From the NCBI GenBank assembly GCA_035546895.1, contig DASZVW010000179.1:1-33286 (forward strand): a stretch of DNA of 33,286 nucleotides. The letters are read 5' to 3'. Below, piece after piece: positions 3,111 to 24,769 of the stretch. The position numbers were made by a program, and so were the translations under genes. The DNA comes from Polyangia bacterium. Lineage in GTDB: Bacteria; Myxococcota_A; Polyangia; Fen-1088. Numbering within the stretch: the stretch's first letter is position 1; each line of letters opens with the position of its first letter. Under the pieces are notes generated by a model. It saw only the letters and a program-made list of their open reading frames with translations. It had not been told where the DNA came from and ran no database searches.

Positions 3111-3154
3111 GGAGTTATCGAGATCGGGCCCGAAAAAGGGACCTGAATTCGAAC
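3111..3154 (+). repeat. Conserved 44-nt intergenic motif, copy A
   Basis: GGAGTTATCGAGATCGGGCCCGAAAAAGGGACCTGAATTCGAAC. It matches copy B at 34/44 positions without gaps, and its first 13 nt are identical to copy D. It lies upstream of the recombinase gene on the minus strand and 77 nt upstream of the plus-strand ORF at 3231. Confidence 0.7.
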
Positions 3155-3230
3155 GGGAATCTGGCGCCCGTGAGCTGCGGCGGTCCTTGCCGCGGCGCGG
3201 CAGACCAGGCCGGGTGGTACGGTAACTCAG

Positions 3231-3506
3231 ATGGGGGAGAATCGATGTCGGCGATGCAATACCGTCGTGGACTCGCCAGGGTGGCTCTGTTGGCTGTGCG
3301 ATGGGCCGCTGTGCCACGACTGCGGAGAGCGCCACGGCCACTGTGACCACCAAGGTCCGCCACTCGATGATTTGGACCGTCTGTGGGCGACGGCCGACGA
3401 GGTGAAGCGGGCGGAGCTCCTAGCCGCAACGCGAGAGCTCGCCGCGAAGTACGAGGGCCGAACCCCGATGATCCTGCGCCGTCCAATATCAGGTGAGCCC
3501 AACTAG
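3231..3506 (+). CDS. Small Cys/His-rich (zinc-finger-like) hypothetical protein
   Basis: ATG at 3231. The N-terminus CRRCNTVVDSPGWLCWLCDGPLCHDCGERHGHCDH has paired CxxC motifs. The stop lies 2 nt before the next ATG (3509). Confidence 0.5.
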   Translation: MGENRCRRCNTVVDSPGWLCWLCDGPLCHDCGERHGHCDHQGPPLDDLDRLWATADEVKRAELLAATRELAAKYEGRTPMILRRPISGEPN

Positions 3507-3508
3507 GA

Positions 3509-3739
3509 ATGCGCCACGGCGAGGAACCTCCACGGTTCAAGACCGCCCTTCGCCTCACAGCGTTTGGAGCGCAGGGCGCCTTTACCTTCGCCATGGCTCT
3601 GACGGTGGCAGACGTTGCGAGCCAGCTCGCGCCACCTCACCGACACGGGCTCTGGTTCGCGCTGGCAGGAGGAACTGCGGCCCTGGGGTTCTGGCGGATG
3701 TGGGGATGGATCTGGAAGCGGGTTGGCATCCCTTGGTAG
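3509..3739 (+). CDS. Small hypothetical membrane protein (two predicted TM segments)
   Basis: ATG at 3509 is tightly coupled to the upstream ORF. There are two hydrophobic stretches (AFGAQGAFTFAMALTVADV and LWFALAGGTAALGFW). No family was recognised. Confidence 0.4.
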   Translation: MRHGEEPPRFKTALRLTAFGAQGAFTFAMALTVADVASQLAPPHRHGLWFALAGGTAALGFWRMWGWIWKRVGIPW

Positions 3740-3784
3740 CGGCCATCCCCTCGAGCACGGCGAACTCCAGGCCGAAGGTTCTGT

Positions 3785-4129
3785 CTAGTGGCGCCGTGTA
3801 ACTAGAGCCTGCACCACGCCGACGAGGGCAACGAGTACCGCAGTCGCGACCTTCCCCCAGTCAATTCGGCTCCAGAGCGACGCCGGGCGCTTTCGGCGTC
3901 GGTGGGTACCCGGCGGTACCACGAGCGGAACGACCGCGTGGCCTCTCAATCGCTCGAGGATTCGCATCTGCATCCTCGAAATTTGCCGGAGACCCACGCC
4001 CCAAAGAAGAGGCGGATCCAGGATGACTTTGGGGGGGGCTATTCTCGAAGCGAGAAGAGCGGGGTCTATTCTCGCGACAGCCTCAGCTATGGCGCCGTTG
4101 CTGCACTTGCCGACGGAACGCGTAGCCAT
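3785..4129 (-). CDS. Possible small tail-anchored membrane protein (start uncertain; ATG 3973 or 3967 more likely)
   Basis: The ORF ends in a basic stretch plus a hydrophobic helix (RRRKRPASLWSRIDWGKVATAVLVALVGVVQALV). The N-terminal part overlaps the 3' end of the 4087-4965 ORF, and a G8 tract sits at 4031-4038. Confidence 0.25.
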   Translation of the reverse strand: MATRSVGKCSNGAIAEAVARIDPALLASRIAPPKVILDPPLLWGVGLRQISRMQMRILERLRGHAVVPLVVPPGTHRRRKRPASLWSRIDWGKVATAVLVALVGVVQALVTRRH

Positions 4130-4965
4130 ATGAACCGATCCCGAGCGCCTTCTCTGCGGAGCGAGGCGGGTATTTCGGAGAATTCTCGAGCTGTGATGAA
4201 TTGGTTCTGCTCCGATGACTCTCTCCCCCTCCGGTGCACGTCCTCAAGCTGCAGCTCGGTGTAGGGTGGGCCATCGCCAATCCAAAACATGTCGATCACC
4301 TTCGACGCACACTTCATCGCCTCCAGTTTCTTGAGGCCGTGCCTTCGCAGTAGCTCGGTCGCGAAGTAGAGAAAGGCGCCACGTCCGGGCCGCTGCCGAC
4401 TCGCGTATTTCGGATAGTAGGCCCGCGGTAAAAGCATTCGCTGCGGCTTCTGCTGCCCGGGGCCCCACACGGTCCCGCAACTCGTGCACTGACGTGAACC
4501 GCTCTCGAACGGCGGCACTGAAAATCCCTTCGCCGTCGCGGCCTCCATGATCACCTTGTTCTGTCTATCAGCCTCCGGCGCCGGCTCCAGTAGCTCGTGA
4601 TCGCACGTCCTATCGACTGCGTCCCGGAGCCGGTGCAGTCGGGTTGTGAACTGCAACAGCTCGTCCCTAAGCTCGCTCCACGGCCAGAAGGTATGCTCCG
4701 TCGGTTCATTCGCGCCCAGAAACTCGCTGATTTCCTGCAAGTCGAAGATGGCTTTTCGCAGATATTCGTTCAGCGCTTCGGGCACGGGGGTCCAGAGCGT
4801 GGCACTGTCGGCGAGCTCCTCATATGCGCCCTCGTCGAGCCCCGGCAAAGCGTCACGAATCCTGCTCTCGACCTCACATACCTCGATGGCCTCGAACTCC
4901 GGGCGTTTCGGTCGGAAGTATATGGCGGTGGCACCGTCAGCTCTCGTGAACGTACGGTCGTCCAT
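4087..4965 (-). CDS. Hypothetical protein (orphan cargo gene)
   Basis: 292-codon ORF with a balanced, protein-like composition (many D/E/K/F/Y/W), unlike the R/P/A-rich shadow ORFs nearby. It lies in a visibly lower-GC stretch. No family was recognised. Confidence 0.6.
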   Translation of the reverse strand: MDDRTFTRADGATAIYFRPKRPEFEAIEVCEVESRIRDALPGLDEGAYEELADSATLWTPVPEALNEYLRKAIFDLQEISEFLGANEPTEHTFWPWSELRDELLQFTTRLHRLRDAVDRTCDHELLEPAPEADRQNKVIMEAATAKGFSVPPFESGSRQCTSCGTVWGPGQQKPQRMLLPRAYYPKYASRQRPGRGAFLYFATELLRRHGLKKLEAMKCASKVIDMFWIGDGPPYTELQLEDVHRRGRESSEQNQFITAREFSEIPASLRREGARDRFIWLRVPSASAATAP

Positions 4966-5179
4966 GTAGCGCGATCGTACACCGGTCGAGGAACTCCATG
5001 GTGCCCCGGTCGACCCTGGCGAAGGGACATCAAGCTCCCGTTGGCAGTTGACCGGCCTGGGCGACCACCCGATGTTACCCCGCGACTAGACCTCTCGCCG
5101 CGGCCCACGTCGGGCGTAGCAGCGATCGATACCTCCATCCGCGTGCAATCGACTACGATAGGACATCGCGGAGAGCACG

Positions 5180-7711: not shown

Positions 7712-7712
7712 A

Positions 7713-9465: not shown

Positions 9466-9474
9466 GCGGACTTC

Positions 9475-9870: not shown

Positions 9871-11925
9871 TCACGATGGTCTTCCGGCGTTGCGGCGCCG
9901 TCGCCGATGCCTGGTGTGCTGCTGGTCGGCGTCCTGAGTGAAGGAACAGGTCGGGTAGTTCGAGCAGGCCCAGAAGGCACCGCTCTTCCCGGGGCGCTTT
10001 CGGAGCGAGCCGCTACAGCCTGGCGAGCGGCAGGGTCGAATCTCGACGGCAGGGAGATTCAGCGGCCCCGCGCTCTTGGCCCGGGCGACGAGCTCGCCGA
10101 GCTGCTTTCGGACGGCGTGAAGGAATCCGTCGAGCGGAGCCTGGCCGTCCTGGACCTTTCGAAGTGTCGACTCCCAGAGCGCGGTCATGTCCGGCTGCGT
10201 GGCGACGGACGGAAGAGATCGGATGAGCGCCCGCGCCGTCGGTGTCGAGTAAATCTGGCGCTTGTTCTCTTCGACGTACTTGCGATCGAACAGGCGCTGG
10301 ATGATCGCTGCTTGTGTCGCTGGTGTTCCTATCCCGTCGGTCTCGCGGAGAAGAGCCTTGATCCGAGGGTCCGAAACGTACCGAGCGATTCCGGTCATCG
10401 CCTGGACGAGGCTAGCGGCCGTGAATCTACGCGGTGGCTTCGTCTTCTTGGCAACGATGCGCGTCTGGGCGACGCGCAGGACCTGCCCACGTTGGAGGGG
10501 CGGAATGGGAGAGTGGGGGTCGACATCGTTCTCTGCGGCTGGAGCGTCGGGATCATTTCCGCCGCCCTGCTCATCATCCGTGAGAGCCTCATAAAGGCGG
10601 CGCCACCCCGGAGCAATCGGCTGACGGCCGGTGGCGATGAGGCGTTCTCCAGCGACGATGAGTTCTGCCTCGAGCTGGTGGTACTCGAAGGGTGGACAAA
10701 ATTGCGCGAGGTAGCGTCGAGCGATGAGGTCGTAGACAGCGAGCTCGTCTTTCGACAGCCCTCCCGACTTCTCGGGTCGCGGAGTCGGAATGATCGCGTG
10801 GTGAGCCGTGACTTTCGCGTCGCTCCACGCCTTCGAACGAATCGAAACGTCCGCCGCGGCGGCCGCGGCAGCGATCTGAGGGTCGACGACGGCGATCGCC
10901 CGGACGACATCGGTCGCCTGGGCGAGGTGGCCTTCCGGCAAATGGGAGCAATCCGAGCGGGGGTAAGTGACGAGACGGTGCGTTTCGTAAAGCGCCTGGC
11001 AGACGTCGAGGACGGTCTTGGGATTGAGCCCCAGCTTGCGACCTGCGTCGATCTGGAGGTCCGACAGCGAGTACGGCAGCGGGGCGGCCTCGGACTTCTT
11101 CTCGCGGGTCGCCTTCACCACCGTAGCCGGTTGGCCCGCGATCTTGCGGTCGATGGCGCCGGCAACGGCGCTGCTCACGAGCCGCCTCTCATCGTCGAGG
11201 GCCGAGTCGGCCGCCGGGCCCGGCCGCCAGCTGGCAGCGAAGGGATGGGCGGCGCCGGCGACGTCGGCGACGATCGAGAAGTAAGGCTTCGCGACGAAGT
11301 TCTCGATTTCGAGGTCGCGCCGGACGATCAGACCGAGGAGGGGCGTCTGCACGCGGCCGACGGAGAGGACGCCGTCCTGATAGCCGGCTTGTCGGCCGAG
11401 GACGGTGTAGAGCCTGGTCATGTTGATGCCGTACATCCAGTCGGCGCGCTGGCGGCCGAGCGCGGCGTCGTAGAGGGAGCGGAAGTTGGAGTTGGGCTGG
11501 AGGGCGCCGAGGGCCTTGCGTACCGCACTCGGATTGAGGTCGCTGATGAGGATGCGCTCCACCCGCCCGCGAAAGCCGAGGTATTGGAGGACCTCGTCGA
11601 CGAGCAGTTGGCCCTCGCGGTCCGGGTCGCCGGCGTTGACCACGACGTCGACGCGAGGGAGGAGGGCCTTGATGGTCTTGAGCAAGTCGGGCGTCTTGAC
11701 GGCGAGCTTCCATTCGGTCGGCGTGATCGGAAGGTGCTCGAGCTGCCAGCTCTTGAAAGCAGGGTCGTAGGCGTCTGCCTCCGCGAGCTCGAGGATGTGG
11801 CCTGCGCACCAAGCGACCAGGTCGGCTCCGCATTCGATGTAGTTGTCGCGACGCTGTGGCTGCGGAAGGACGTCAGCGATCGCGCGGGCGAGGGACGGCT
11901 TCTCGGCGACGAAGAGACGGCGCAT
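9871..11925 (-). CDS. topB: DNA topoisomerase III
   Basis: ATG at 11925 follows GGAG. It has a Toprim N-terminus (MRRLFVAEKPSLARAIA ... NAGDPDREGQLLVDEV), an active-site Tyr region (HRLVTYPRSDC) and a C-terminal zinc ribbon (CRSPGCSGSL ... FWACSNYPTCSF). Confidence 0.95.
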   Translation of the reverse strand: MRRLFVAEKPSLARAIADVLPQPQRRDNYIECGADLVAWCAGHILELAEADAYDPAFKSWQLEHLPITPTEWKLAVKTPDLLKTIKALLPRVDVVVNAGDPDREGQLLVDEVLQYLGFRGRVERILISDLNPSAVRKALGALQPNSNFRSLYDAALGRQRADWMYGINMTRLYTVLGRQAGYQDGVLSVGRVQTPLLGLIVRRDLEIENFVAKPYFSIVADVAGAAHPFAASWRPGPAADSALDDERRLVSSAVAGAIDRKIAGQPATVVKATREKKSEAAPLPYSLSDLQIDAGRKLGLNPKTVLDVCQALYETHRLVTYPRSDCSHLPEGHLAQATDVVRAIAVVDPQIAAAAAAADVSIRSKAWSDAKVTAHHAIIPTPRPEKSGGLSKDELAVYDLIARRYLAQFCPPFEYHQLEAELIVAGERLIATGRQPIAPGWRRLYEALTDDEQGGGNDPDAPAAENDVDPHSPIPPLQRGQVLRVAQTRIVAKKTKPPRRFTAASLVQAMTGIARYVSDPRIKALLRETDGIGTPATQAAIIQRLFDRKYVEENKRQIYSTPTARALIRSLPSVATQPDMTALWESTLRKVQDGQAPLDGFLHAVRKQLGELVARAKSAGPLNLPAVEIRPCRSPGCSGSLRKRPGKSGAFWACSNYPTCSFTQDADQQHTRHRRRRRNAGRPS

Positions 11926-12027
11926 TGGTCAGGACTCCAGTGGTTGGTCAATCAGGTTGTCGAAGAGTTCGAATGCGCGTTCGATGACGGACGGTGGGAG
12001 GCCTTGGGTTGTTGGAACCGCGCCGGA

Positions 12028-12777
12028 TCAGTTGAGGCGGATGGCGCCCTCGGCCAGGGCCCGGCGACTGAAGGTCGGATGCGACGCGACTGGGAAGGAG
12101 GTACCGTCGAACACCCGGACGCTCTCGGAGTGGACGCGCGACAACAGACGGACTTGGCCGTCGCTCCAGTTCTCCAGGTGGTGATAGAGAAGTCCCCTGA
12201 CCTCGGCGGTGGCGCCTACGCAGAGGGCCGGCTCGAGCGCGTCGCCCCAGAAGACGACGTCATGGGTTGCCGGGAAAGGAGAGCGGGTCGAAACGGTGAC
12301 CCGGGGGAGGCCGTCGTCGTTCTCGATCGCGATGACCTTCCCGACCAGGTGGATCTGGTTTTGGGCATAGGTTTCGAGCTTGGGAGGAGGGCAGTCGTGC
12401 GGCCGCTCGAGCTCGGGAAGCGCCAGGACGCGCGCGAATATCTGGCGCGCCGTGGGCGCGGGGTGGATCACTGTCGCGCTGCGAACGGAAATCTTGGCGA
12501 TGCGCTGGTAGAGGTCTCGTCGCGCGCGACTGTTCACCAGGAGGGGACCGTCGACGCGCACGGCGGCGCCGTCGCGAATGGTCTTCGCGAGCTGCGATGC
12601 CGTCTCGCCGACAGCGATGCAGCGCTGTCTATCAGCGATGTCACGGCCGGGATTGAACTCGGCGGTGGTGTTCAAGTAGAACTTGAGCACAGGCCGACCG
12701 ACTCGGTTGAGTTCGAGTTCGAGTATCTCGTCGACGATTCCGGCGATGGTGGCGCAGTTGGCGTGTACGGGCTTCAT
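12028..12777 (-). CDS. Hypothetical protein with two SSB-like OB-fold halves
   Basis: ATG at 12777 follows GAGGAG. Both halves follow the SSB-type pattern (NCATIAGIVDE...VLKFYLNT...CIAVGETASQLAKTIRDGAAVRVDGPLLVNS and QIHLVGKVIAIEND...VVFWGDALEPALCVGATAEVRGLLYHH). There is no acidic C-terminal tip. Confidence 0.6.
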   Translation of the reverse strand: MKPVHANCATIAGIVDEILELELNRVGRPVLKFYLNTTAEFNPGRDIADRQRCIAVGETASQLAKTIRDGAAVRVDGPLLVNSRARRDLYQRIAKISVRSATVIHPAPTARQIFARVLALPELERPHDCPPPKLETYAQNQIHLVGKVIAIENDDGLPRVTVSTRSPFPATHDVVFWGDALEPALCVGATAEVRGLLYHHLENWSDGQVRLLSRVHSESVRVFDGTSFPVASHPTFSRRALAEGAIRLN

Positions 12778-12861
12778 GACTTGATGCTCCTCGGATGGGT
12801 GTGAAGGGTGGGAATGGGCAAGAAGAGAGCCGGGCGCGGTCAGCCCGCGCCCGGCGGTGTG

Positions 12862-13626
12862 TCACATGCCGCGTTCGACGCTCTTGCCGCGCTGGCGGCC
12901 GCGCGCGCGAGCTGGCGGGGGCGGCGTGGCCGGCTCGCGCTCGGGTGCCTTGGCCTGCTCCGACGCCTGCTGCCGCTCCTGGGTGCGCTCGAGGACCTGG
13001 AACTGCCGGCAGTCGATGCCGGACAGGCGGCGCTCGACGCCCTCGGGGCCTGGGATGCTCTTGTGGCGGACGGAGCCGTTCACGGAGATCGTGTCGCCGG
13101 CGCTGATCTCCTTGAGCGCGAGCTCGCCGGTCTTGCCCCACATGGTGACGTTGTGCCAGTCGTCGCGCTCCTTGCCGTTCTGGACGGTCGTCGTCGCGAC
13201 GCTGACGGCAGTGAGGGTCGCGCCGCTCTGGAGGGTCTTCTGCTCGACGCTCCGAACGACACCGATGAGCTGGGCCTCGTTCATCGAGGTGAAGTTCTCG
13301 ATGGCGGGGGCAGCCGAGTCGATGTGCAGCTCCAGGACGCGGTGTTTGGCCCCGTCCTTCTCGTAGCTGTTGACCCGGAGCGATCCGGTGAGGCTGACGC
13401 CCTTGCCCTTGTCGAAGTCGGCGGCGACCTTCTCGGCCATATCGCCCCAGGCGACTGCGCGAGTCCATTGGGTGTCCTCGCGGATGTTTCCGCCCCGGTC
13501 GGTGTAGCGCTCCGAGGTGGCAATGTTGAGACGGGCGAATTTCACGCCCTCACTGGTCTCGCCGAGCTCCGGTTTCTGGCCGAGGCGGCCGACGAGGGTT
13601 GCGGTGCTGATGTGTTCACGGTTCAT
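12862..13626 (-). CDS. ssb: Single-stranded DNA-binding protein with two tandem OB folds
   Basis: ATG at 13626 follows AAGGAGA. OB1 is ATLVGRLGQKPELGET..GVKFARLNIATSERY...TQWTRAVAWGDMAEKVAADFDKGKGVSLTGSLRVNSYEKDG. OB2 is QLIGVVRSVEQK...DDWHNVTMWGKTGELALKEISAGDTISVNGSVRHK. The tail is basic and Pro-rich rather than the usual acidic tip. Confidence 0.85.
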   Translation of the reverse strand: MNREHISTATLVGRLGQKPELGETSEGVKFARLNIATSERYTDRGGNIREDTQWTRAVAWGDMAEKVAADFDKGKGVSLTGSLRVNSYEKDGAKHRVLELHIDSAAPAIENFTSMNEAQLIGVVRSVEQKTLQSGATLTAVSVATTTVQNGKERDDWHNVTMWGKTGELALKEISAGDTISVNGSVRHKSIPGPEGVERRLSGIDCRQFQVLERTQERQQASEQAKAPEREPATPPPPARARGRQRGKSVERGM

Positions 13627-13684
13627 GGTGGTCTCCTTGCTGGTGGTGGGGAACAGGTGCGTGGCAAAAGCGGGGGCGCTACGG

Positions 13685-14107: not shown

Positions 14108-15549
14108 CGGGGACCTCCTTGGTTGGTGTAGGGCGGGAAGACGATGTCCTTGGTGACGATGACGTTGACGCTGTAGCCAGCGCGGACGGTGATGGTTGGT
14201 TGAATGGCGAGGTTCTTCTGCGTGATCTGCTGGCCCGCCGTGTTGACCGCGCCGCCGGCGTTGGCGGCCCAGCCCTGGGCGATCGTGGGCTGGTACCCGC
14301 TTGGGTTGCCGGCCGCGCGCTCAGCGGTGGCAGAGAGCAAGGTGCCGAGCGCGACGCCGGTGATGATTCGCCACCAGTGGTGGTTGACCTCGTCGGCGAT
14401 GCCGGAGGCCCCAGCGAGGTCGGCTCCTGGCATGCACTCGAGGGAGATCGAGATGCCATCCGGCCTGATGACGCGGTTCCAGCAGAGAAGAACGCGCTCC
14501 TGGCCGTAGGAGACCGCCGAGTCGTACGTGGCCAGGAGCTTCGACCCCTGCGGGATGATCAGGTAGTTGCCGGAGACCGTGTCGTACACGTTCTCTCGGA
14601 CCTGGCCGATGATGGTGCCTGGCAGATCGCTGTTGATGGGCGTGAGAAGCGTCGTCGGGATGATGGTGCCGGCCTTCACCTCGAAGGGGCTCCTGGGCAT
14701 GATGACGGGCTGGTTGAGATAGGTCGCGGTGTTGACGCCGTCGCGCGCGAGGAAGTCCGACTTGTGCTGCTGCATGTTCGGATCACCAGTGCCAGCGCCT
14801 CCGAGCGGGAGCTGTTGCGGCGAGTCCGCTTTCGCGGTGCCGGGAGCGCCGGTGCCGGCGAGGAGAGCCGCGGCGGCGTTGGCGGCCGCGCCGCCTAGGG
14901 TGTCGGTGCCAGAGCCCTCGATGTCGACGAGAATCGACGAGCCGACGGCCTTCTGCCGCTCGTCGCGGATCGTCTCGCGCAAAGAGGAGTGGCCGAATGA
15001 ACCGGCGCCGCGGCGCTCGGCTGTCGGTGCTTGATCGTCTGGAAGATCGGCACCGTGCAGGGGCTTGCCGAGCTTCGGGGGCTGGGGGTGGAGATCGGCG
15101 TTGTTGCCGGGAGCGTTCTCGACGGCCTCGGGGATGGGGACGCCCTTGGTCTGGCTGTCGGTGTCGGGCGCGGTGGCGGCGTGGGCTTGTTGAGAGCGGG
15201 GCGAGAAGGCAACCGCGGCCGCGAGTAGGACGGCGGCCGTGAGAGCCCCGCCGATGAGCAGAATTGGACCGCGGCGGAGGCTGCGGGCCTGGGGCTTCTC
15301 GAGCTGCAGGCCGGGGTGATCAGGTGGAAGCCGGGTAGCGTAAGTCATCTGGGTAGGCGGTTCCCCGTCCGCGCGCAGCTCGTCGCCGGCGTCGCCCGCG
15401 CCTCGAGCGCCCGTGTTCTCAGCGATGAGGTCGGGGTGCGCCTCGTGGCCCGGCGCCTGCGGAAGCGGGCGGAGGGGAACCGGCACGTCGCGGCTGCCGG
15501 TGTGCTCCAAGTCCGGCGGGAACATCGTGCGTGTTGTCGTGTCGTCCAT
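14104..15549 (-). CDS. trbI: Conjugal transfer protein TrbI (VirB10 family)
   Basis: ATG at 15549 follows GAGGAG. It has a Pro-rich N-terminus, one TM segment, and the conserved core GTIIPTTLLTPINSDLPGTIIGQVRENVYDTVSGNYLIIPQGSKLLATYDS...GQERVLLCWNRVIRPDG...DEVNHHW. Confidence 0.9.
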   Translation of the reverse strand: MDDTTTRTMFPPDLEHTGSRDVPVPLRPLPQAPGHEAHPDLIAENTGARGAGDAGDELRADGEPPTQMTYATRLPPDHPGLQLEKPQARSLRRGPILLIGGALTAAVLLAAAVAFSPRSQQAHAATAPDTDSQTKGVPIPEAVENAPGNNADLHPQPPKLGKPLHGADLPDDQAPTAERRGAGSFGHSSLRETIRDERQKAVGSSILVDIEGSGTDTLGGAAANAAAALLAGTGAPGTAKADSPQQLPLGGAGTGDPNMQQHKSDFLARDGVNTATYLNQPVIMPRSPFEVKAGTIIPTTLLTPINSDLPGTIIGQVRENVYDTVSGNYLIIPQGSKLLATYDSAVSYGQERVLLCWNRVIRPDGISISLECMPGADLAGASGIADEVNHHWWRIITGVALGTLLSATAERAAGNPSGYQPTIAQGWAANAGGAVNTAGQQITQKNLAIQPTITVRAGYSVNVIVTKDIVFPPYTNQGGPR

Positions 15550-15562
15550 GGTGGGCTCCTCG

Positions 15563-16549
15563 TTAACGGGTGCGGATGATCCGGACGATTTCTTGGTTCT
15601 GCTGGCCGATGCGCAGCTCCGCCGATTCGAAGAGGCGATCGACGATGTAGGTGTCGTTCTTCACGCGGTAGTTCACGAGCTGCGTATCGCCGGTGCTCGA
15701 GAGGACGAACAGCGCGGGCGCCTCGCGATCGAGCATCGCTTCGGGGAAGCGGATGTACGTCTTGTGCCCGTCGTCGAACACCTGCGCGGGCACCCATTGC
15801 GGGCGGCCGTTCATCACGGCGACGCCGTAGTTGAAATTGAGTCGGTCGACGGTGACGGCGGTCGGCGTGGCCGCGGCGCTGAGGGCCGCCTGCTGCTCAA
15901 GGCCTGCCTCCAGCTGAGCGGCGTCGTCCTGCGGGTAACGCCAGGCGACGGCGGCCATGTACGTGTCGTCGTACGAGTGCAGCTCGAGGATGTACGACCG
16001 GCGATCGGTGTTGAGCGCCAGGGTGGTTTCGAGATCGGGCCGCGTGGGCTTGATGTAGATGTGCGGCTGCTCGCTGCCGCCCGACGAGGACGCGCTCTTG
16101 GCGAGAATCCAGCGGACGTTGTCTCCGATGGCGGGCTTGCCCACGAGGTGCTCGCCGGGCTGCAGCTGGACGTCAGTGAGGTGCTCGGGGGCGGTGTAGA
16201 TTTGAAACAGCGTTCCCGGCGCGTAGTCGTAGGTCATGATAGCGTTGATGTACTCCTCGGCCTTGGGCCCCTCGGTGGCCTTCCGGTTGGCCTCGCGGAT
16301 GACGTCGGAGGGCCGGCGGCTGTGCGCCGCCGGCGTCGTGTGTCGGACCGCGACGGCCATCGGCACCGCGCTGTGCTTCAACTGGCCTGGCATGGGCATC
16401 ACCTTCGGAATCTCGACGACGACAGGCTTCGGCGGCGGGTCCTTCACCGGTTCGGCGCGCACGTAGTTCGGCGGCGGCTGTCGGCCGGCGCACGACAGCG
16501 CTGGCAGGAGGAAGAGGAGGGCGAGCGCTTGATGGGTCAGTCGGTTCAT
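15563..16549 (-). CDS. trbG: Conjugal transfer protein TrbG (VirB9 family), with signal peptide
   Basis: I trimmed the listed 544-aa ORF to ATG 16549, which overlaps the trbF stop as ATGA. The N-terminus is MNRLTHQALALLFLLPALSCAG. The core is YDYAPGTLFQIYTAPEHLTDVQLQPGE...GDNVRWIL...IYIKPTRPDLETTLALNTDRRSYILELHS. Confidence 0.9.
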   Translation of the reverse strand: MNRLTHQALALLFLLPALSCAGRQPPPNYVRAEPVKDPPPKPVVVEIPKVMPMPGQLKHSAVPMAVAVRHTTPAAHSRRPSDVIREANRKATEGPKAEEYINAIMTYDYAPGTLFQIYTAPEHLTDVQLQPGEHLVGKPAIGDNVRWILAKSASSSGGSEQPHIYIKPTRPDLETTLALNTDRRSYILELHSYDDTYMAAVAWRYPQDDAAQLEAGLEQQAALSAAATPTAVTVDRLNFNYGVAVMNGRPQWVPAQVFDDGHKTYIRFPEAMLDREAPALFVLSSTGDTQLVNYRVKNDTYIVDRLFESAELRIGQQNQEIVRIIRTR

Positions 16550-17268
16550 GGCGTTGTCCTTTCGGCGGCGATGGGTGTCGAGAGGCGGGCCCAATGGAGC
16601 TCGTCGATGTAGAGACCGAGCGGGTTGAGCGCGAGCTGATCGGCGTTCTCGGGGACGCGAAGGAGGACGTGAAACGTCCCGCGCCAGGCGGCGGTGCCTG
16701 TCGGGTTGCCGTGGTCGTCCCAGGTGGTCTCGGTCCAGTCGACCTGCCAGGTCTCCTGGGTGATCTGGACGATGACGGACACCTGCAGGCTGACGCGGAC
16801 TTGCGCCTGCAGCTGGTCGAACGGGTTGTGGTCGTGGACGTAGGCGTTGAGCTGGTTCGCGCCGTTCGACGTGACGAGCTTGTAGGCGTCGATCCAGTTG
16901 CGCTTGAGGACCGCGGGGTCGGAGGAGATCTCGCGGGTGTCGAAGATGAAGCGACGCAGGTGGTAGTGGAGCGACGCGGTCGAAGGCTTGAAGTCGCGCA
17001 GCGCGGCCTTGTCGAGCGGGCCGAGATAGGTGGGCTGTCCGAGCTTGTCGACCTCGACGATGTGGGGGATCGCCTTGGGCTGGGCGGCGAGGTAGAGGAG
17101 GCCGCAGCAGGCGAAGAACAGGAGGCCGATGAGAGCGAAGGTCGCGAGGCGCCAGTTGGCGGCCTGAACGGTGGCGGCTCCCATGCGGAGGTCCCACTCT
17201 TGGCGGGCCTTGAGGTAGGGGGTCTCAGCGGGTTCGGCGGGGCGCCAGGAGGGGCGAGAGTTTTTCAT
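16546..17268 (-). CDS. trbF: Conjugal transfer protein TrbF (VirB8-like)
   Basis: ATG at 17268 (the listed ORF starts one codon earlier at a GTG). It has a single TM segment (WRLATFALIGLLFFACCGLLYL) and the conserved end ALNPLGLYIDELHW. Confidence 0.9.
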   Translation of the reverse strand: MKNSRPSWRPAEPAETPYLKARQEWDLRMGAATVQAANWRLATFALIGLLFFACCGLLYLAAQPKAIPHIVEVDKLGQPTYLGPLDKAALRDFKPSTASLHYHLRRFIFDTREISSDPAVLKRNWIDAYKLVTSNGANQLNAYVHDHNPFDQLQAQVRVSLQVSVIVQITQETWQVDWTETTWDDHGNPTGTAAWRGTFHVLLRVPENADQLALNPLGLYIDELHWARLSTPIAAERTTP

Positions 17269-17274
17269 CACGCC

Positions 17275-17318
17275 CGAGTTGTCGAAAGGAGCCCCGAAAA
17301 AGGGACCTAAAATCGGAC
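17275..17318 (+). repeat. Conserved 44-nt intergenic motif, copy B
   Basis: CGAGTTGTCGAAAGGAGCCCCGAAAAAGGGACCTAAAATCGGAC. It fills nearly the whole gap between the trbL stop (17319) and the trbF start (17268), with 6 nt between the motif and the ATG. Confidence 0.7.
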
Positions 17319-18449
17319 TTAGACGTGCGATTTATTCGCGCTGGCTCCGCCGGCCTTGGCTGCGCCGCCGCTCGACGCGCCGTTCCGGCCGCCGGAAGCG
17401 GCGTCGGGACGGGTGTTGCTGGCCACGGTGGCGCTGTCCCGGCCGCCCGCTCCCGTACCGCCGGAGCCTCCGCCTCCTCGGCCGCCCAAGTGGAGGGCGG
17501 AGGCGAGATGCTGGAAGGCGCCGGCAGCGCCGCCGCCCCGGCTACCACCGCCCGCCGCGCCGGAGGCGGCGGCAGTAGCGGCCTGAGCCCCCAACGAGGT
17601 GCCGCCCGAAAGGACGGCAGCACCGGTGGAGACCGCGCTGGTGACGTGCTGGCCGACGGCGTTGGCGCTGAGCGACGGGGATGCGGCGAGGAGGTCGGCG
17701 GCGAAGCCTGGTGCGCGCCAGACGAGGATCGCCAAGAGGATGCAAACGAGGCACATCGCGAGCGATTCGTTCAGGAGGACCTCGTTCCCTGTGGAGCTGA
17801 AGTGGAGCTGGCCCAACACGGGCTGGATCAGTGCCACCGTGAACGAGAGGACCATGAGCTTGACGCTGACGGCGACGGCGGCGCCGATTGCCTTCTCAGC
17901 GAGAAATCGCGTGTGCTGCGAGATGCCGAAGGGGATGAGGCAGCTCGCGAGGGTGACGACCAGGTAGTACTCGATGACGGCGATGCAAACCTGGCACGCG
18001 ATCAGGAAGAAGGACGCGACGAGAATCACGTAGCAGATAGCGTCGAGAATGAGGTCGCCGAGGTGGGTGATGCCGGCGTCCTGCATCGACTGGACGAGGG
18101 GCTGGGTGACGTCGAGGGCCATGCCAGCGATCTTGGAAGGGTCGAGGATGAGCCCGACGTTGCCGCCGGCACCGCCGGCGCTGAGAGCGATCTGGACCAG
18201 CGAGTCGGAGAAGAACTTCACCAGGGCGGGGAAGTGGGCGGCGAACCAACACCAGAAGCTCAATTGCATGAACTTCTTGAAAGGCTCGGAGACGGAGCCG
18301 CCGTCGAGGGCCATCCAGAGGCAGAAGGTCACGATCTCGATGATGGCGAGACCGCTGAGGAGGCCTCCTGCAGCTCCGACGCGGGCTTGGGCGCCAGAGA
18401 GCGCGTTGATGAAGGTGGTGAGGGTGCCGGTGAGGACGTTGAAGGTCAT
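17319..18449 (-). CDS. trbL: Conjugal transfer protein TrbL (VirB6 family)
   Basis: ATG at 18449. It is a polytopic membrane protein (LSGLAIIEIVTFCLWMAL, FWCWFAAHFPAL, ICYVILVASFFLIACQVCIAVIEYYLV and others) with the Gly/Ala-rich C-terminal tail typical of TrbL. Its position between trbJ and trbF fits. Confidence 0.85.
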   Translation of the reverse strand: MTFNVLTGTLTTFINALSGAQARVGAAGGLLSGLAIIEIVTFCLWMALDGGSVSEPFKKFMQLSFWCWFAAHFPALVKFFSDSLVQIALSAGGAGGNVGLILDPSKIAGMALDVTQPLVQSMQDAGITHLGDLILDAICYVILVASFFLIACQVCIAVIEYYLVVTLASCLIPFGISQHTRFLAEKAIGAAVAVSVKLMVLSFTVALIQPVLGQLHFSSTGNEVLLNESLAMCLVCILLAILVWRAPGFAADLLAASPSLSANAVGQHVTSAVSTGAAVLSGGTSLGAQAATAAASGAAGGGSRGGGAAGAFQHLASALHLGGRGGGGSGGTGAGGRDSATVASNTRPDAASGGRNGASSGGAAKAGGASANKSHV

Positions 18450-18455
18450 CGCACC

Positions 18456-18499
18456 CTGGTTGTCGAGAGCAGGGGCGAAAAAGTGTCCTAGAAAGCGCC
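18456..18499 (+). repeat. Conserved 44-nt intergenic motif, copy C (more diverged)
   Basis: CTGGTTGTCGAGAGCAGGGGCGAAAAAGTGTCCTAGAAAGCGCC. It aligns to copies A and B without gaps. It lies 6 nt from the trbL ATG, the same spacing as copy B has to trbF, and similarity continues to the start codon (minus strand: TCGACAACCAGGGTGCGATG versus TCGACAACTCGGGCGTGATG). Confidence 0.6.
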
Positions 18500-18629: not shown

Positions 18630-18658
18630 TTGACGGACCCTACGCTGCGCGTTCCTAT
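18630..18658 (+). promoter_or_regulatory. Candidate promoter (TTGACG-17 nt-TCCTAT), 7 nt before ATG 18666
   Basis: TTGACG at 18630-18635 and TCCTAT at 18653-18658. No SD-like sequence precedes the ATG, so the transcript may be leaderless. Confidence 0.3.
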
Positions 18659-18665
18659 CGTCACA

Positions 18666-20066: not shown

Positions 20067-20349
20067 AGCACCCTGGGCGCGCGCCGGCACTTTGTGGGGG
20101 GGCCGCAACCGTGACAACGACAGTCCGTCGAGGTCCGTCAGGGGCACGTCTTCAGGGATGCGACAGCTCGGGAGATGGCGCTCGGGTTCCCGCTTTAAAG
20201 AGGCGCCGCGGCGGAGGCCTCGAACGGCGGGGTCTGTCGAGACGGCATAGCCTGGCGCCGCCATGCTGGCGACCAGCGGCCCTAAACTAAGGCGCCGTCG
20301 GAATGCCATGCGCAAGCTCGCACCACAACCCGCGTAAAGTTTGTGGGGG

Positions 20350-21102
20350 CTAGGGGAGCCTCGTCAGCGTCGGAGCGGGCGGTCCACGGTAAGTGTAATT
20401 CTGGAGCCGGCGTCGGTTTCGCTCGCGGGACATCTCCTGGTCGCCGGTGGACGCGGCGATGTAGTCGGTCACCACGCGGCCCAAGGTGGAGAGGTTCTGG
20501 ACGAGATTGGCGAGCTCCGTGTGGATGAGAGCGAGCTGCTGGTTGACGATCTGCAGCTGCTGAATCTCGCCGGTCGATGCGCTGTTCGCTGTGAGGAGCG
20601 CCTTCTGAATGGCGGCGTTGTTGGCGTCGAGCGTCGAGATGACAGTCTGAGCGCGCACGGCAGCGAGCGACGAAGCGGTGATCTCGGCGTGCCAGTTGTC
20701 GTAGCTGGAGTTGAAGCTGGCGTAGGGAGCTGACTGCCAGGCCTTCTGATTCGCGGGAAAGAGACGGTTGAAGTTGGTGCTGACGACGTTCGCGGTGTAG
20801 CCGATGGAGTTGATGTCGCCTTGGAGCGTGGCGAAGGTCATCTGGACTTGGTTGATGGCGCTGATGAGTCCCGAGATCGAGGTCGGGTCGATGGTCTTGA
20901 GGTTTTGGATTTGGTACTGGAGCTGCGTCTTCATCACCTGCAACTGGTTCGCGGTGTTGATGACCAGCTGGGCGGTCTGGAGCGCGGTCTTGATGTTCTG
21001 TAGGAGATTGCTGTGGTCGACGACGGCGAGCTGGGCGCGAGCCGGGCGGCCCGTCGCAGCGAAGGCGGCCAGGAATGCGGTCAGGACGAAGGTTCTGCGC
21101 AT
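20350..21102 (-). CDS. trbJ: Conjugal transfer protein TrbJ (VirB5-like)
   Basis: ATG at 21102 follows GAGGAGG. The signal peptide is MRRTFVLTAFLAAFAATGRPARA, followed by VVDHSNLLQNIKTALQTAQLV and Q/N-rich coiled coil typical of TrbJ. It lies immediately downstream of trbE. Confidence 0.85.
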   Translation of the reverse strand: MRRTFVLTAFLAAFAATGRPARAQLAVVDHSNLLQNIKTALQTAQLVINTANQLQVMKTQLQYQIQNLKTIDPTSISGLISAINQVQMTFATLQGDINSIGYTANVVSTNFNRLFPANQKAWQSAPYASFNSSYDNWHAEITASSLAAVRAQTVISTLDANNAAIQKALLTANSASTGEIQQLQIVNQQLALIHTELANLVQNLSTLGRVVTDYIAASTGDQEMSRERNRRRLQNYTYRGPPAPTLTRLP

Positions 21103-21113
21103 GGGGTACCTCC

Positions 21114-23576
21114 TCAGGATCGGAACGGGGCGGTTCGACGGGCGGCGCCAGCGGCGGCCACCGCGGCCGCCTCGAGGCCGCGGCTCCGAAGGATTGCTTC
21201 CGCTCGGCGGTCGGGCGGCGTCGCGGCGACAATCTCGTCGAGAATGCGATGATCGGCAGGCGTCGACATACCCGCGAAGGCCAGGGCCGTCGGCCCGAGA
21301 TCGAGCGTGAAAAGGCGGCGGCCGTGAACGGAGCGGTAGTAGTAGTCCCGCTTCTTCTGGGCTTGGGCGATGATCGAGATTTCGGTCTCGCTGAGACCGA
21401 AGCCGGCGTAGGCAGAGGCAATCTTGGGCGTGAGCGCCTCTTCGTTCGGGAGGTAGATCTTCGTGGGGCAGGCGCTCAGGATCGTGGGAAGGATGGGGGA
21501 GTCGGCCGCGTCCGCGACCTCCTGGGTCGCGAAGGTCACGTAGACGTTCTTCTTGCGCAAGGTCTTGAGCCAGGCCTGCAGGCGGCTGGCGAAGCTCGGG
21601 TGCTTCAGGAAGAGCCAGGCCTCGTCGAGGATCATGAGCGTTGGGTTGCCGTCGAAGGACTGCTCGACCTGGTGAAAGAGGTAATCCAGTGCGGGGACGA
21701 TCACCTCCTCGCCCAGAGCCATGAGGTGGCCCATCTCGACGTGGACCCAGGGCGAGAGACGGAGATGATCCTGGCGGGAGTCGAAGATCTGGCCGAAACG
21801 GCCGCCGGCGGGGTCGACGGTGTAGGGCTTGATGACTGCGCCGAGCTCGGGGCCGAGCAGACCTGCAAAGACCGAGAGCGTCCGGTGTGGTCCCGGCATG
21901 GTTGCTAGATGGGCGACGACCTCGGAGACGCGGGCCTTGCGGGCGGGTGTCAGCTCGTAGTTCTGGGCTGCGATCAGGTTGAGGACGAACTGTGTCGCCC
22001 AGTGGCGCTCCGCCCGCTCGTCGATCCGAGCTAACGGCTGAAAGGCGAACTCAGAGGCGTCGTTGCCGGGCTCGTAGTAAGCGCCACCGACGGCAATGGT
22101 GGCCGCCCGGGCCGAGCGATCCTTGTCGAAGATGATGACGCGGGCACCGGGATAGCGCTGGAACTGCAGGGCGAGCAGGGCGAGGAGCGTGCTCTTGCCG
22201 GCGCCGGTGGGGCCGATGATGAGGGTGTGGCCGACGTCCTGGACGGCCAAGTTGAGACGGAACGGAGTATCGCCGCTGGTGCTGCAGGTGATGTGAGAGG
22301 TACCAACGCCGGAGACGTCGCGAAGGTGTTTGCTCTCGGGGGCGCCGGCCCAGACTGCGGAGACAGGCATCAGGTGGGCGAGATTCACGGTGTGGAGGAT
22401 CGGGCGCCGGACGTTGGCGTAGACGTTGCCCGGGTGCGAGCCAAGCCAGGCGTCGCGGGAGTTGAGCGACTCGTCCTTGACGGCAAAGCCGCGGCCTTGG
22501 ATCACCTGCTTGATGGTCTGGACCTTCCGGCGGGCATTCTCGAGATCGGTGTCCCAGACGGTGACGGTGGCGGTGAAGTACCCGAAGGCCACCTGGTCGT
22601 CGCCGAGGAGGTTGAGCGCTGCGTCAGCGTCGGCCGACTTGGCGATCGCGGCGCCGTCGACGAAGGCGGACTCTTGCTTCATCGCCTGTTCCTTGAGGAG
22701 CTGGAGAAAGCCCTTCTGCTTCTGGAACCAGCCCTTCCGGTATTTCTGCAGCTCGCTCTCGGCGTCCTGCTTGTCCAAGAAGATGAAGCGGGTGACCCAG
22801 CGGTATTCGAGCGGCAGTTGATTGAGGTCGTCCAGAATCCCGGGGTAGGCGGACGGCGGGAAGGAGGCGACGGTGCACGTCGGGATGTAATGGCTGCCCA
22901 ACATGGGAACGTCGCCGGGCGTGAAGGCCATGTCCGAGAGGATGCCGTCGAGGTACATAGGCACAGAGGGCCGACGCACAATGTGGCGATTCATCGAGAC
23001 GGTGGAGTGCAGATACGTGAGGGTCTCGTCGTCGTCGAGCGGACGGACCTCGGGGAAGACGCCGGCCATGATGTCAGCCAGCTCGGCGACCTGTTTTCGG
23101 AACTGAGCGATGACGTCGAGGATCTCTTCGTTCGGTTTGGCCGTCTCCGGGTCCTCGAAGAAGAGGGCTTCGGCGCGGCGCGCGCGCGCAGACGGGGGGT
23201 TCCAGACGAAGGTCAGGTAGTAGGACGATTCGTAGCGCGCGCCGGCCTGCTGGAACGCTGCTCGCCGCTCGACGTCGACGATCCAGGAGGCGACGTTTGG
23301 CCACGTGGAGCTGGGGTAGTCATTCGCCGCCCGCCTCTGGGCCTCGACGAAGAGGGTCCAGCCCGATCCGAAACGACGAAGGGCGTTGTTGAGACGAGCA
23401 ATGCCTGACACGAGCTCCGAGGGGCTCGAGCTGGCGAGATCAGGTCCCCGAAAGGCGAGGGTCTGCTGGAGAAAGCCGTCCTTCTGGAGGATGACGCCAC
23501 CGTCGATGATGGCCGCCCAAGGAAGAAGGTCGGGGAGCCGGTGTGTCGGTTGGCGATACTGGCGGAGAGAGAACAT
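21114..23576 (-). CDS. trbE: Conjugal transfer ATPase TrbE (VirB4 family)
   Basis: ATG at 23576 follows GAGGAG. 820 aa with Walker A IIGPTGAGKSTLLALL and Walker B LMILDEAWLFL. Its size and position after trbD fit VirB4/TrbE. Confidence 0.95.
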   Translation of the reverse strand: MFSLRQYRQPTHRLPDLLPWAAIIDGGVILQKDGFLQQTLAFRGPDLASSSPSELVSGIARLNNALRRFGSGWTLFVEAQRRAANDYPSSTWPNVASWIVDVERRAAFQQAGARYESSYYLTFVWNPPSARARRAEALFFEDPETAKPNEEILDVIAQFRKQVAELADIMAGVFPEVRPLDDDETLTYLHSTVSMNRHIVRRPSVPMYLDGILSDMAFTPGDVPMLGSHYIPTCTVASFPPSAYPGILDDLNQLPLEYRWVTRFIFLDKQDAESELQKYRKGWFQKQKGFLQLLKEQAMKQESAFVDGAAIAKSADADAALNLLGDDQVAFGYFTATVTVWDTDLENARRKVQTIKQVIQGRGFAVKDESLNSRDAWLGSHPGNVYANVRRPILHTVNLAHLMPVSAVWAGAPESKHLRDVSGVGTSHITCSTSGDTPFRLNLAVQDVGHTLIIGPTGAGKSTLLALLALQFQRYPGARVIIFDKDRSARAATIAVGGAYYEPGNDASEFAFQPLARIDERAERHWATQFVLNLIAAQNYELTPARKARVSEVVAHLATMPGPHRTLSVFAGLLGPELGAVIKPYTVDPAGGRFGQIFDSRQDHLRLSPWVHVEMGHLMALGEEVIVPALDYLFHQVEQSFDGNPTLMILDEAWLFLKHPSFASRLQAWLKTLRKKNVYVTFATQEVADAADSPILPTILSACPTKIYLPNEEALTPKIASAYAGFGLSETEISIIAQAQKKRDYYYRSVHGRRLFTLDLGPTALAFAGMSTPADHRILDEIVAATPPDRRAEAILRSRGLEAAAVAAAGAARRTAPFRS

Positions 23577-23586
23577 GAGGTTCTCC

Positions 23587-23847
23587 TCAGGGTTCGAGGT
23601 GGTGTTGGGCGCGCAGCGCGCGTTGGAAGACTTCGAAGAAGTGCGGTTCGCGCTTCGTGAGGTGGACGAACAGGAAGTGAAGGGCGATCTGGATAGGAAG
23701 GAACCAGAGCTGGTAGAGGCCGAGGATGACGACCATCCCCGGCGTCCACAGCAGGATGGCGAAGGTTCGAGGGAGGCCAGCGACGAGAAGCGGGGCGGTC
23801 AAAGAGCGGTGGATCGGTACCTCGAAGCCTTCGGGTAGCGGCGCCAT
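23587..23847 (-). CDS. trbD: Conjugal transfer protein TrbD (VirB3-like)
   Basis: 86 aa. The motif IHRSLTAPLLVAGLPRTFAILLWT is followed by a second TM segment. It lies between trbC and trbE. Confidence 0.85.
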   Translation of the reverse strand: MAPLPEGFEVPIHRSLTAPLLVAGLPRTFAILLWTPGMVVILGLYQLWFLPIQIALHFLFVHLTKREPHFFEVFQRALRAQHHLEP

Positions 23848-23856
23848 CGTTGGGCT

Positions 23857-24198
23857 CTAGAGAGCGAGCCCGCCGGAGAACCCCAGGAACGGGAGCGCGA
23901 ACTGTCCGACGGTGAAGCAGATCGAGAGGGCGAAGATGATGGTGATGAACTTCTTCATCGCGTGGCCGCTCTCGGCGATCACCATTCCCAGCGCGGTAAT
24001 CACGATGCCGGCGATGCCGATGCCCTTGGCCACGGGACCGGTCAGCGAGGTCACGAGCTGGGAGATCGGCCCTTCCCAGGGCATGCCCGCGCTCGCCGCG
24101 AAGGCGTTGGCGCCGATGCAGAAGAGGATCGCGGCGACGGCCGCAGCGACGGGGAAATGGAGGTTGCGAATCAGGTGGTGGGCGGTCTTGGTCTTCAT
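23857..24198 (-). CDS. trbC: Pilin-like TrbC (VirB2 family)
   Basis: ATG at 24198 follows GGAG. 113 aa with a long signal-like N-terminus and two hydrophobic helices (GIGIAGIVITALGMVIAESG, IIFALSICFTVGQFALPFLGF), as expected for VirB2/TrbC pilins. Confidence 0.85.
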   Translation of the reverse strand: MKTKTAHHLIRNLHFPVAAAVAAILFCIGANAFAASAGMPWEGPISQLVTSLTGPVAKGIGIAGIVITALGMVIAESGHAMKKFITIIFALSICFTVGQFALPFLGFSGGLAL

Positions 24199-24293
24199 GG
24201 TGTTGGCTCCAGTGCGAGGTGTGGTGAAGCGGTTAAGCGAAGCGAAGGGCCGGTGAGGGGTGTAGGGAGTCGCGTCGGGTCGACGGTCGCGGT

Positions 24294-24704
24294 TCAGAGA
24301 GGGAGGTCGTCGTCGGCCGGCGGATCGGCGTGAGGCGGGACGACGTCGTTGGCGATCGGGGTTTCGCCAGCGCGCGCGCGGATTCCGAAGTCGATCCAGT
24401 CGGTCCCACGGACCTCGACGGAGGTCCGGGTGGCGCCGTCTTTCTCGTAGGTGCTGACCCGAAGCGCGCCTTCGACGCGCACGAGAGAGCCCTTGCGGAC
24501 GTGATCGACGATCTGATTGGCCGCGGGCCCGAAGAACACGATGCGGTGCCAGTCGGTGTGCTCGCGGGGCTGATCGTCCTTGCCGCGCCAGCGGGTGGTC
24601 GTGGCGAGGTTGAAGCGGGCGATCGGGGTCCCGGAAGCGGTGGTGCTGGCCTCCGGGTCTCGCCCGACGAAGCCGATGAGGTCGATGTGATTGTGTGTTT
24701 TCAT
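24294..24704 (-). CDS. ssb: Single-stranded DNA-binding protein (single OB fold, acidic tip)
   Basis: ATG at 24704 follows AAAGGA. The sequence is IDLIGFVGRDPE...ARFNLATT...TDWHRIVFFGPAANQIVDHVRKGSLVRVEGALRVSTYEKDG, with C-terminus PPADDDLPL (compare the canonical DDDIPF tip). Confidence 0.9.
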   Translation of the reverse strand: MKTHNHIDLIGFVGRDPEASTTASGTPIARFNLATTTRWRGKDDQPREHTDWHRIVFFGPAANQIVDHVRKGSLVRVEGALRVSTYEKDGATRTSVEVRGTDWIDFGIRARAGETPIANDVVPPHADPPADDDLPL

Positions 24705-24725
24705 GGCGGCTGGGTCCTTTCAGCC

Positions 24726-24769
24726 GGAGTTATCGAGACGAGGCCTAAAAATCGGACCTACTTTTTTCG
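24726..24769 (+). repeat. Conserved 44-nt intergenic motif, copy D
   Basis: GGAGTTATCGAGACGAGGCCTAAAAATCGGACCTACTTTTTTCG. The first 13 nt are identical to copy A, and 27 of the first 34 positions match A without gaps. It lies 21 nt upstream (minus strand) of the ssb ATG at 24704, at the head of the ssb-trbCDEJ block. Confidence 0.65.

Follow-up and report, generated by a model that had tools for sequence, protein, structure and literature searches.

What is a conserved motif of 30-44 nucleotides doing at four places in one conjugative element, and what reads it? The question is raised by contig DASZVW010000179.1 of a Polyangia bacterium, a stretch of 33,286 nucleotides (hereafter the window, meaning the whole stretch that was analysed) that carries an integrative conjugative element (ICE), lodged in recA of a soil myxobacterium from the class Polyangia (Myxococcota). 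The motif precedes ssb-trbC, trbL and trbF in the conjugation (trb) cluster and a module that encodes a large serine recombinase. The original prediction was of a shared promoter/operator or 5′-untranslated region (5′-UTR) module. The promoter/operator part of that proposal, at the starts of transfer, DNA-processing and integration units, is supported because the motif occupies the same four positions in related elements, is absent from ~300 kb of DNA elsewhere, stands at a fixed distance from start codons and has box variants that change in step; the structured 5′-UTR is not borne out. The motif is real, element-specific and conserved, with positions and geometry that are directly observed, and the sequence points to the type of its reader: on balance, we take the motif to be a promoter recognized by a dedicated alternative sigma factor of the sigma-70 family.

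All four copies that had been predicted are present, on the minus strand, in one orientation and aligned without gaps. Each consists of two boxes, AGGWCNC followed by a T-tract and, after a fixed gap, YCGAYAAC. The copies are listed here with their scores in a weight matrix built from 29 sites and with the predicted transcription start (+1).

3111..3154, minus strand: copy A, 39.0 bits; -35-like box AGGTCCC at 3138-3144, then the T-tract; -10-like box TCGATAAC at 3114-3121; predicted +1 at G 3107
17275..17318, minus strand: copy B, 43.5 bits; -35-like box AGGTCCC at 17302-17308; -10-like box TCGACAAC at 17278-17285; predicted +1 at G 17271, the first base of GTGATG
18456..18499, minus strand: copy C, 40.8 bits; -35-like box AGGACAC at 18483-18489; -10-like box TCGACAAC at 18459-18466; predicted +1 at G 18452, 3 nt 5′ of the trbL ATG
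24726..24769, minus strand: copy D, 34.9 bits; -35-like box AGGTCCG at 24753-24759 with an A-tract (GAAAAAAGT) 5′ of it; -10-like box TCGATAAC at 24729-24736; predicted +1 near 24722
17309-17321 and 18490-18503, minus strand: second copies of the left box, before trbF and trbL

The 16-nt core common to copies A and B and the 13-mer common to A and D are both as described, and the other three copies are 79%, 60% and 65% identical to copy A (repeat search, family D2). Copies B and C do end 6 nt before an ATG, those of trbF (17268) and trbL (18449), respectively. Copy B begins immediately past the trbL stop codon (17319-17321), copy C occupies the divergent gap between trbL and a Cys-rich cargo gene on the plus strand (18630-20066), and copy D is followed by a leader of ~18 nt, with AAAGGA, between its predicted +1 and the ssb ATG at 24704. 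The pattern GGWCNNNNTTTNNNNNNNNNTNTCGAYAAC, with up to one mismatch, has four matches in the window, exactly the four copies, against 0.01 expected from 100 dinucleotide shuffles; in the weight matrix the copies reach 35-43.5 bits and the next match in the window has 10 bits, the level of shuffled sequence. A partial box had also been proposed upstream of topB. It exists at 11955-11964 (TTCGACAACC), as the right half only, and is probably a chance occurrence: about one occurrence of the octamer TCGAYAAC is expected in the window from base composition, two are found outside the four copies, and no right box was found upstream of topB in the related loci L027, L004, L005 and L032. The second left box (such as GTCCGATTTT) lies ~12 nt 5′ of the main left box, begins within or directly after the stop codon of the preceding gene and is present at the equivalent places in relatives. 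Before ssb, the same place is taken by an A-tract that resembles a UP-element half-site.

About 30 related loci were compared (here given L numbers), with TrbL and recombinase homologs that are almost all metagenomic; protein-based contig scans contributed 1 locus from genomes and 14 from metagenomes. The motif is kept in related trb elements at the same four positions. A site is found before ssb/trbC in L001, L011, L015, L004, L005, L006 and L010, before trbL in L001, L011, L014, L015, L004, L005, L006 and L016, and before trbF in L011, L014, L015, L004, L005, L021, L024 and L006; in L019 and L023 the motif is 5′ of the gene that follows trbL. Sites before the recombinase module score 35.1 bits in L029 and 27.6 bits in L027/L028. 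Relatives with a tyrosine integrase (L004) keep the motif, and in L004 and L006 the ssb/trbC site sits in a divergent gap. Across 298 kb of non-redundant sequence, the window and related loci together, there are 28 matches of at least 16 bits and none in shuffled sequence, all 28 at one of the four kinds of position and oriented like the gene that follows, with no sign of a motif that is common regardless of gene context; the matrix was trained on most of the sites that it scored, so this test is partly circular, and only L027, L029 and the clade-5 sites described below are independent of the training. A pattern scan of IMG/VR returned one match, intragenic and at chance level. More divergent relatives have trbL straight after trbJ with no motif between them (L008/L010, L012, L020, L022, L019 and L023, with TrbL identities up to ~60%, and L032, with 64%), and no motif was found at any position in the classical relative L012 (traG-RHH-trbB-trbC...) or in the Prosthecochloris plasmid pPAES01. 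It follows that the internal copies are derived, a feature of one sub-family.

Alignment of 31 sites defines a left box GG(T/A)C with its T-tract and a right box (C/T)CGA-N-AA(C/G) at a constant distance, the sequence of the spacer being variable between clades. Two different conserved boxes, held at a constant distance across a variable spacer, give the motif a promoter-like anatomy. G-36, C-13, G-12, A-11, A-9 and A-8 are invariant, and C-33, T-29 and T-28 nearly so. The right box is uniform within each clade, TCGAYAAC in the clade of the window, CCGAGAAC in L004, L005, L021 and L024, CCGAGAAG in L006, L016 and L010, and CCGACAAG in L019 and L023. There are also subtypes that belong to a position and are kept across elements, such as AGGACACTTTTTCGCCCCT before trbL in the window, L011 and L014; thus the copies are held in place by selection and are not the product of recent copying. 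In L032 and L030 the window-type motif is replaced by a clade-5 variant, TAGGCAAC-N16-CGAYAC(C), that is (T)AGGCAAC-N16-CGAYAC, which is found at L032 5041-5068 and 10458-10485 and at L030 9671-9698, before ssb, trbF and the recombinase module, and also in L020 and L025; a leader with a Shine-Dalgarno sequence follows each of these sites. This recurrence of the regulon layout with another motif sequence is the strongest case of such change, and it favors a reader that acts in trans and has co-evolved with the element or with the host lineage.

At the 20 internal sites the right box ends 6-10 nt before the ATG, 9 nt in 17 cases, and a Shine-Dalgarno sequence is absent from 18 of the 20. The first-in-cluster ssb/trbC sites have leaders of 19-28 nt with AAGG or GAGG in 8/8 cases. 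The shortest gap between box and start codon is 6 nt, and the seventh base after the right box is G at 23 of the 31 sites and the A of the ATG at both sites with a 6-nt gap (counted by hand). A transcription start fixed 7 nt after the box would account for this spacing and for the conserved G. For trbL, with its 9-nt gap and no Shine-Dalgarno sequence, the ATG is then at predicted +4, and the trbL and trbF mRNAs are predicted to be leaderless or nearly so. Leaderless mRNAs are common in Actinobacteria, Deinococcus and archaea. The trbL and trbF genes resemble such cases in having, in nearly all relatives, a start codon 0-3 nt from the predicted transcription start and no Shine-Dalgarno sequence; they differ in that the 5′ ends here are predicted and the promoters lie inside the conjugation cluster of a myxobacterium. 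A literature search returned nothing relevant on leaderless transcripts in Myxococcus or on conjugative elements in Myxococcota.

Among known promoter classes the motif appears to be closest to that of sigma-28 (FliA/WhiG/SigD, group 3), with ECF-like traits in some relatives. The sigma-28 consensus is TAAAGTTT-N11-GCCGATAA (PMC7286023, PMC4866697), registered as (-15)GCCGATAA(-8) and (-36)TCTAAAG(-30) (PMC12784957). The invariant core of the motif, CGA-N-AA, is the core of the -10 element GCCGATAA, the left box GGTCCCT falls, once registered, at exactly -36 to -30, with its T-tract at -29 to -27 where sigma-28 promoters have TTT, and +1 is the seventh base after the right box, usually G. For 36 sites in this register, agreement is 36/36 for C-13, 32/36 for G-12, 32/36 for A-11, 33/36 for A-9 and 36/36 for A-8, the misses at -12, -11 and -9 being clade-5 sites registered one base off and the columns being invariant once these are put in register; the consensus T is matched at -29 in 29/36, at -28 in 32/36 and at -27 in 25/36. 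Clades other than that of the window carry GCCGA, as GCCGAGAA, GCCGACAA or GCCGAYAC, and relatives with GCCGAGAA match 7 of the 8 bases of GCCGATAA. ECF (group 4) promoters have AAC in the -35 element and CGT in the -10 element with a spacer of 16 ± 1, as in TGTCACA-N16-CGTC for ECF41 (PMC3426412). The motif shares their high-information bipartite build and fixed spacer, several copies (GGTCACT-N16-CGAC) resemble the ECF41 promoter and the clade-5 form, GGCAAC-N16-CGAYAC, has the AAC signature. However, AAC is confined to that variant, the window copies having TCC or ACA in its place and CGA instead of CGT; the target genes have no adjacent pair of ECF sigma and anti-sigma genes, and the AA after CGA-N is a better fit to sigma-28. 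No sigma-70 site of the TTGACA-N16-18-TATAAT kind was found on either strand of 16500-25500, and a scan for terminators at the motif sites found none. A sigma-54 promoter has GG and GC elements 10 nt apart (TGGCAC-N5-TTGC), with +1 ~12 nt further on. The motif conserves the GG but, by eye, not a GC at the required distance (columns 29-30 of alignment A3 vary), and such a promoter would leave the most conserved block, CGA-N-AA, without a function.

Beyond the partial circularity of the matrix test, a number of observations weigh against a sigma-28-like promoter. In the -35 element, GGTCCC or GGACGG stands where sigma-28 promoters have the core TAAA, which rules out standard FliA as the reader; agreement with sigma-28 in this region is limited to T-34 (19/36) and to the TTT at -29 to -27, with A-33 in 0/36. 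In the -10 element, the T at -10 is kept in only 6/36 sites and the window copies match GCCGATAA at only 5-6 of 8 bases (CTCGATAA, TTCGACAA, CTCGACAA and CTCGATAA for the four copies). As several sigma consensus sequences were compared, the match to sigma-28 could be partly a matter of selection, and every +1 given here is a prediction from the sequence. At trbL in L006 and L016, GAGG (within AAGGAGG) overlaps the end of the right box, and translation of a read-through transcript would be possible there as well. No sigma-factor domain was found in the 88 non-trb open reading frames (ORFs) of the window, nor did NCBIfam models add anything for the window ORFs that had no assignment. In favor of a sigma-28-type reader, the related element L010 encodes a FliA/WhiG-family sigma of 205 amino acids (NCBIfam TIGR02479, E = 2e-29), followed, within 738-1771, by a shorter paralog with region 4 only, upstream of RadC and 5 kb upstream of trbC; tblastn found no homologs of the L010 proteins in the window or the other loci. 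Flagella are not known from the host class, and a FliA encoded by the host is accordingly not expected. The targets also set these sites apart from known sigma-28 promoters, being conjugation and recombination genes and not flagellar, chemotaxis or sporulation genes. A reader from the sigma-28 family is a tentative proposal, to which we give rather less than an even chance.

The main rival is that the motif is chiefly an operator, a class II activator site or a repressor box for a protein of the element, set over a weak housekeeping-sigma promoter. Control by a shared motif is familiar from the tra boxes bound by TraR in Ti plasmids and from the KorA and KorB operators of IncP-1 plasmids. In the SXT/R391 ICEs, SetCD boxes place one motif at several transfer operons and at the excision/integration genes, a switch worked by a single factor (PMC4344509). 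The layout here, the same motif before transfer genes and a recombinase module, is that of the SetCD regulon (PMC4344509), and it is shared by the four window sites and the orthologous sites and, with a different motif sequence, by L032 and L030. Further points in its favor are the second left box ~12 nt upstream at trbF and trbL (GGTCCGATTTT then GGTCCCTTTTT), arranged like tandem sites one helical turn apart, and the window's lack of a sigma gene. In those systems, however, the sites are activator or repressor sites beside ordinary sigma-70 promoters and their binding proteins are known, whereas here the motif itself has the -35/-10 geometry, no sigma-70 hexamers accompany it and two copies abut start codons. 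Its two boxes differ in sequence, do not repeat one another in inverted or direct orientation and are spaced as in promoters of the sigma-70 family, with nothing like TTGACA or TATAAT nearby; conservation is highest in the -10-like box, an unusual pattern for an activator site, and no conserved regulator gene was detected in the parts that the elements share. We consider an operator of this kind unlikely.

Always in the sense orientation, and at a constant 9 nt from the start codons of trbL and trbF, which have no Shine-Dalgarno sequence, the motif could instead act in the mRNA, in a 5′-UTR or between cistrons, recruiting ribosomes to trbL and trbF or guiding the processing of one long trb transcript; the left part can fold, in L029, into a perfect hairpin, GGUCCC-UUUUUC-GGGACC. 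Nevertheless, RNAalifold predicts 0 base pairs for the 31 sites, the GGTCCC/GGGNCC hairpin is paired in 61% of cells with covariation not above that of shuffles, and Rfam has 0 matches in the whole window. The ssb/trbC sites and all clade-5 sites are 14-29 nt upstream of the start codon and are followed by a Shine-Dalgarno sequence, so the motif is not needed there for ribosome binding. Copy C and the first sites of L004 and L006 are in divergent gaps, where no upstream sense transcript is expected and a promoter is needed. A role in RNA is accordingly given very little probability. Less probable again, and close to negligible, is a dispersed repeat of the REP or MITE kind with no regulatory role, or a set of serine-recombinase sites that delimit cassettes. 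Four direct copies in one orientation, in a mobile element that encodes a site-specific recombinase and with a cargo hot spot adjoining copy C, would suit such an origin, but the copies have neither terminal inverted repeats nor a stable hairpin, none is found away from the four gene-start positions in the 298 kb, and the preservation of subtypes by position is orthologous conservation and not recent spread. Relatives such as L004, with a tyrosine integrase, also retain the motif, and recombination between copies B and C would delete trbL.

The gene for the reader may lie in the part of the element beyond the window. Within the window, the protein with four AP2 domains that had been suggested as a binder is an unlikely one, since the close relative L027 has the motif but not this protein; a STAND-TPR protein and orf182 were rejected with it, none of the three being shared with L027 or any other locus. 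The MqsA palindrome is ACCT-N-AGGT. The motif does not contain it, and the MqsA-like antitoxin of the window, shared only with L011, was likewise set aside.

With the promoter reading, a single promoter type would drive four units of the element. The P-type trb cluster is on the minus strand and consists, by Pfam and NCBIfam assignments, of ssb, trbC, trbD, trbE, trbJ, trbL, trbF, trbG and trbI; the units downstream of each copy are as follows.

20350..24722, minus strand: downstream of D, ssb (24294-24704), trbC (23857-24198), trbD (23587-23847), trbE (21114-23576) and trbJ (20350-21102); Pfam and NCBIfam SSB, TrbC, VirB3, CagE_TrbE_VirB and TrbJ
17319..18452, minus strand: downstream of C, trbL (17319-18449); Pfam TrbL
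9871..17271, minus strand: downstream of B; Pfam VirB8, CagX, TrbI, SSB and Topoisom_bac
16546-17268, 15563-16549 and 14104-15549, minus strand: the conjugation genes of unit B, trbF, trbG and trbI
13685-14107, 12862-13626, 12028-12777 and 9871-11925, minus strand: the further genes of unit B, orf140, two SSB-family genes and topB
1155..3107, minus strand: downstream of A, a 33-codon ORF, orf92 and the large serine recombinase
1155-2741, minus strand: the large serine recombinase, 528 amino acids; Pfam Resolvase, Recombinase and Zn_ribbon_recom

These units would be ssb-trbCDEJ from copy D, trbL from C, trbFGI-ssb-ssb-topB from B and the small-ORF/orf92/recombinase module from A, with +1 at the G of a GTG in copies A and B and, in copy C, at a G that precedes the ATG by 3 nt; trbL and trbF would be translated from leaderless or near-leaderless mRNAs with AUG at +4, and ssb from an mRNA with a short leader and a Shine-Dalgarno sequence. 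One trans-acting factor would then switch on the mating-pore, DNA-processing and excision/integration genes together, and the internal copies would keep trbL and trbF expressed despite cargo inserted in the trb cluster. Copy A was predicted to lie upstream of the recombinase, and does; it heads the whole module of 33-codon ORF, orf92 and recombinase and not the recombinase directly. The recombinase has its true start at ATG 2741, its homologs being 528-547 amino acids long. The 33-codon ORF (3006-3107) begins, with GTG, precisely at the predicted +1; its stop codon, TGA, shares bases with the GTG of orf92 (GTGA), and orf92 (2731-3009, minus strand, 92 amino acids) overlaps the recombinase ATG by 11 nt; lengths and layout are the same in L029 and L027. 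These small ORFs may form a translationally coupled chain or encode a directionality factor, and the 33-codon ORF remains putative, open frames being cheap at high GC content.

Control through one motif shared by every transfer and integration/excision promoter has precedents, the SetCD boxes among them; what is new is the sequence of the motif, its sigma-28-like geometry, the predicted leaderless trbL and trbF mRNAs and the host group. A still more speculative version, which we regard as possible and nothing firmer, is that the element owns a sigma-28-like factor with a -35 specificity that has drifted from TAAA, which serves a private regulon of transfer genes (mating pore, SSB/topoisomerase and excision), with promoter copies inside the trb cluster and leaderless trbL and trbF making the cluster modular and tolerant of cargo. 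Such a switch would resemble the sigma switches of phages and of sporulation, here owned by an element in a myxobacterium without flagella. Were the reader an element-borne sigma-28-like factor, this sigma family, with its roles in flagella and sporulation, would gain one in horizontal gene transfer, and an operon would be seen to have promoter cassettes spreading within it. Very little work exists on conjugative elements from uncultured soil Myxococcota, and a motif that marks every transfer unit offers a handle on the master regulator, a predictor of the genes that belong to the program and a template for transfer reporters.

The host recA gene (578-1312, plus strand) is interrupted after codon 196 (...FINQL), with the serine recombinase gene adjoining the junction; an intact allele, encoding 346 amino acids and 99% identical, exists. 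Truncated RecA proteins of 241-298 amino acids are numerous in Polyangia metagenomes, and L029 and L030 have this arrangement too, whereas L027, with a recombinase 87% identical, is not adjacent to recA. It looks as though recA is a recurrent target of such elements, and excision would restore RecA. With the element inside recA, excision also determines whether the host RecA is functional, a link between the regulon and DNA repair. Among named RecA proteins, the closest (91-97% identical) come from metagenome-assembled genomes (MAGs) of Polyangia bacteria and a TrbL 75% identical is also from a Polyangia MAG; therefore, the host is a myxobacterium of the class Polyangia. No relaxase, coupling protein or trbB gene was seen in the window, and the element extends beyond its right end. 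L030 has two serine recombinase genes ~10 kb apart (10001-11674 and ~20097-21674) beside a recA fragment, the second identified by tblastn and not gene-called, with an ECF sigma gene (16732-17295) between them, and may consist of tandem elements at the recA site.

The cargo in the window consists of the STAND-TPR protein, the 4xAP2 protein, the Cys-rich secreted protein and an MqsR/MqsA-like pair. Cargo is concentrated between trbJ and trbL, a hot spot occupied in the window by the inverted Cys-rich secreted or lipoprotein-like gene (18630-20066, plus strand) and in L001 (7148-9573) by a gene for a 275-amino-acid protein and an amidohydrolase gene; in both, the cargo is 5′ of the trbL promoter copy. 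The STAND NTPase-TPR gene (plus strand) and the repeated-AP2-domain gene (minus strand), within 5180-8750, are missing as a pair from the close relative L027 and may be a defence or regulatory module. Direct repeats of 243-261 nt (D1, 8066-8625) inside the AP2 gene probably encode its repeated domains. The genes for an MqsR-like toxin and an HTH_3 antitoxin-like protein (29323-30164, plus strand) are shared with L011 at 67-78% identity. Three SSB-family genes are present in this one element (24294-24704, 12862-13626 and 12028-12777), the last of which is a weak match to the family and is absent from L004, L005 and L027.

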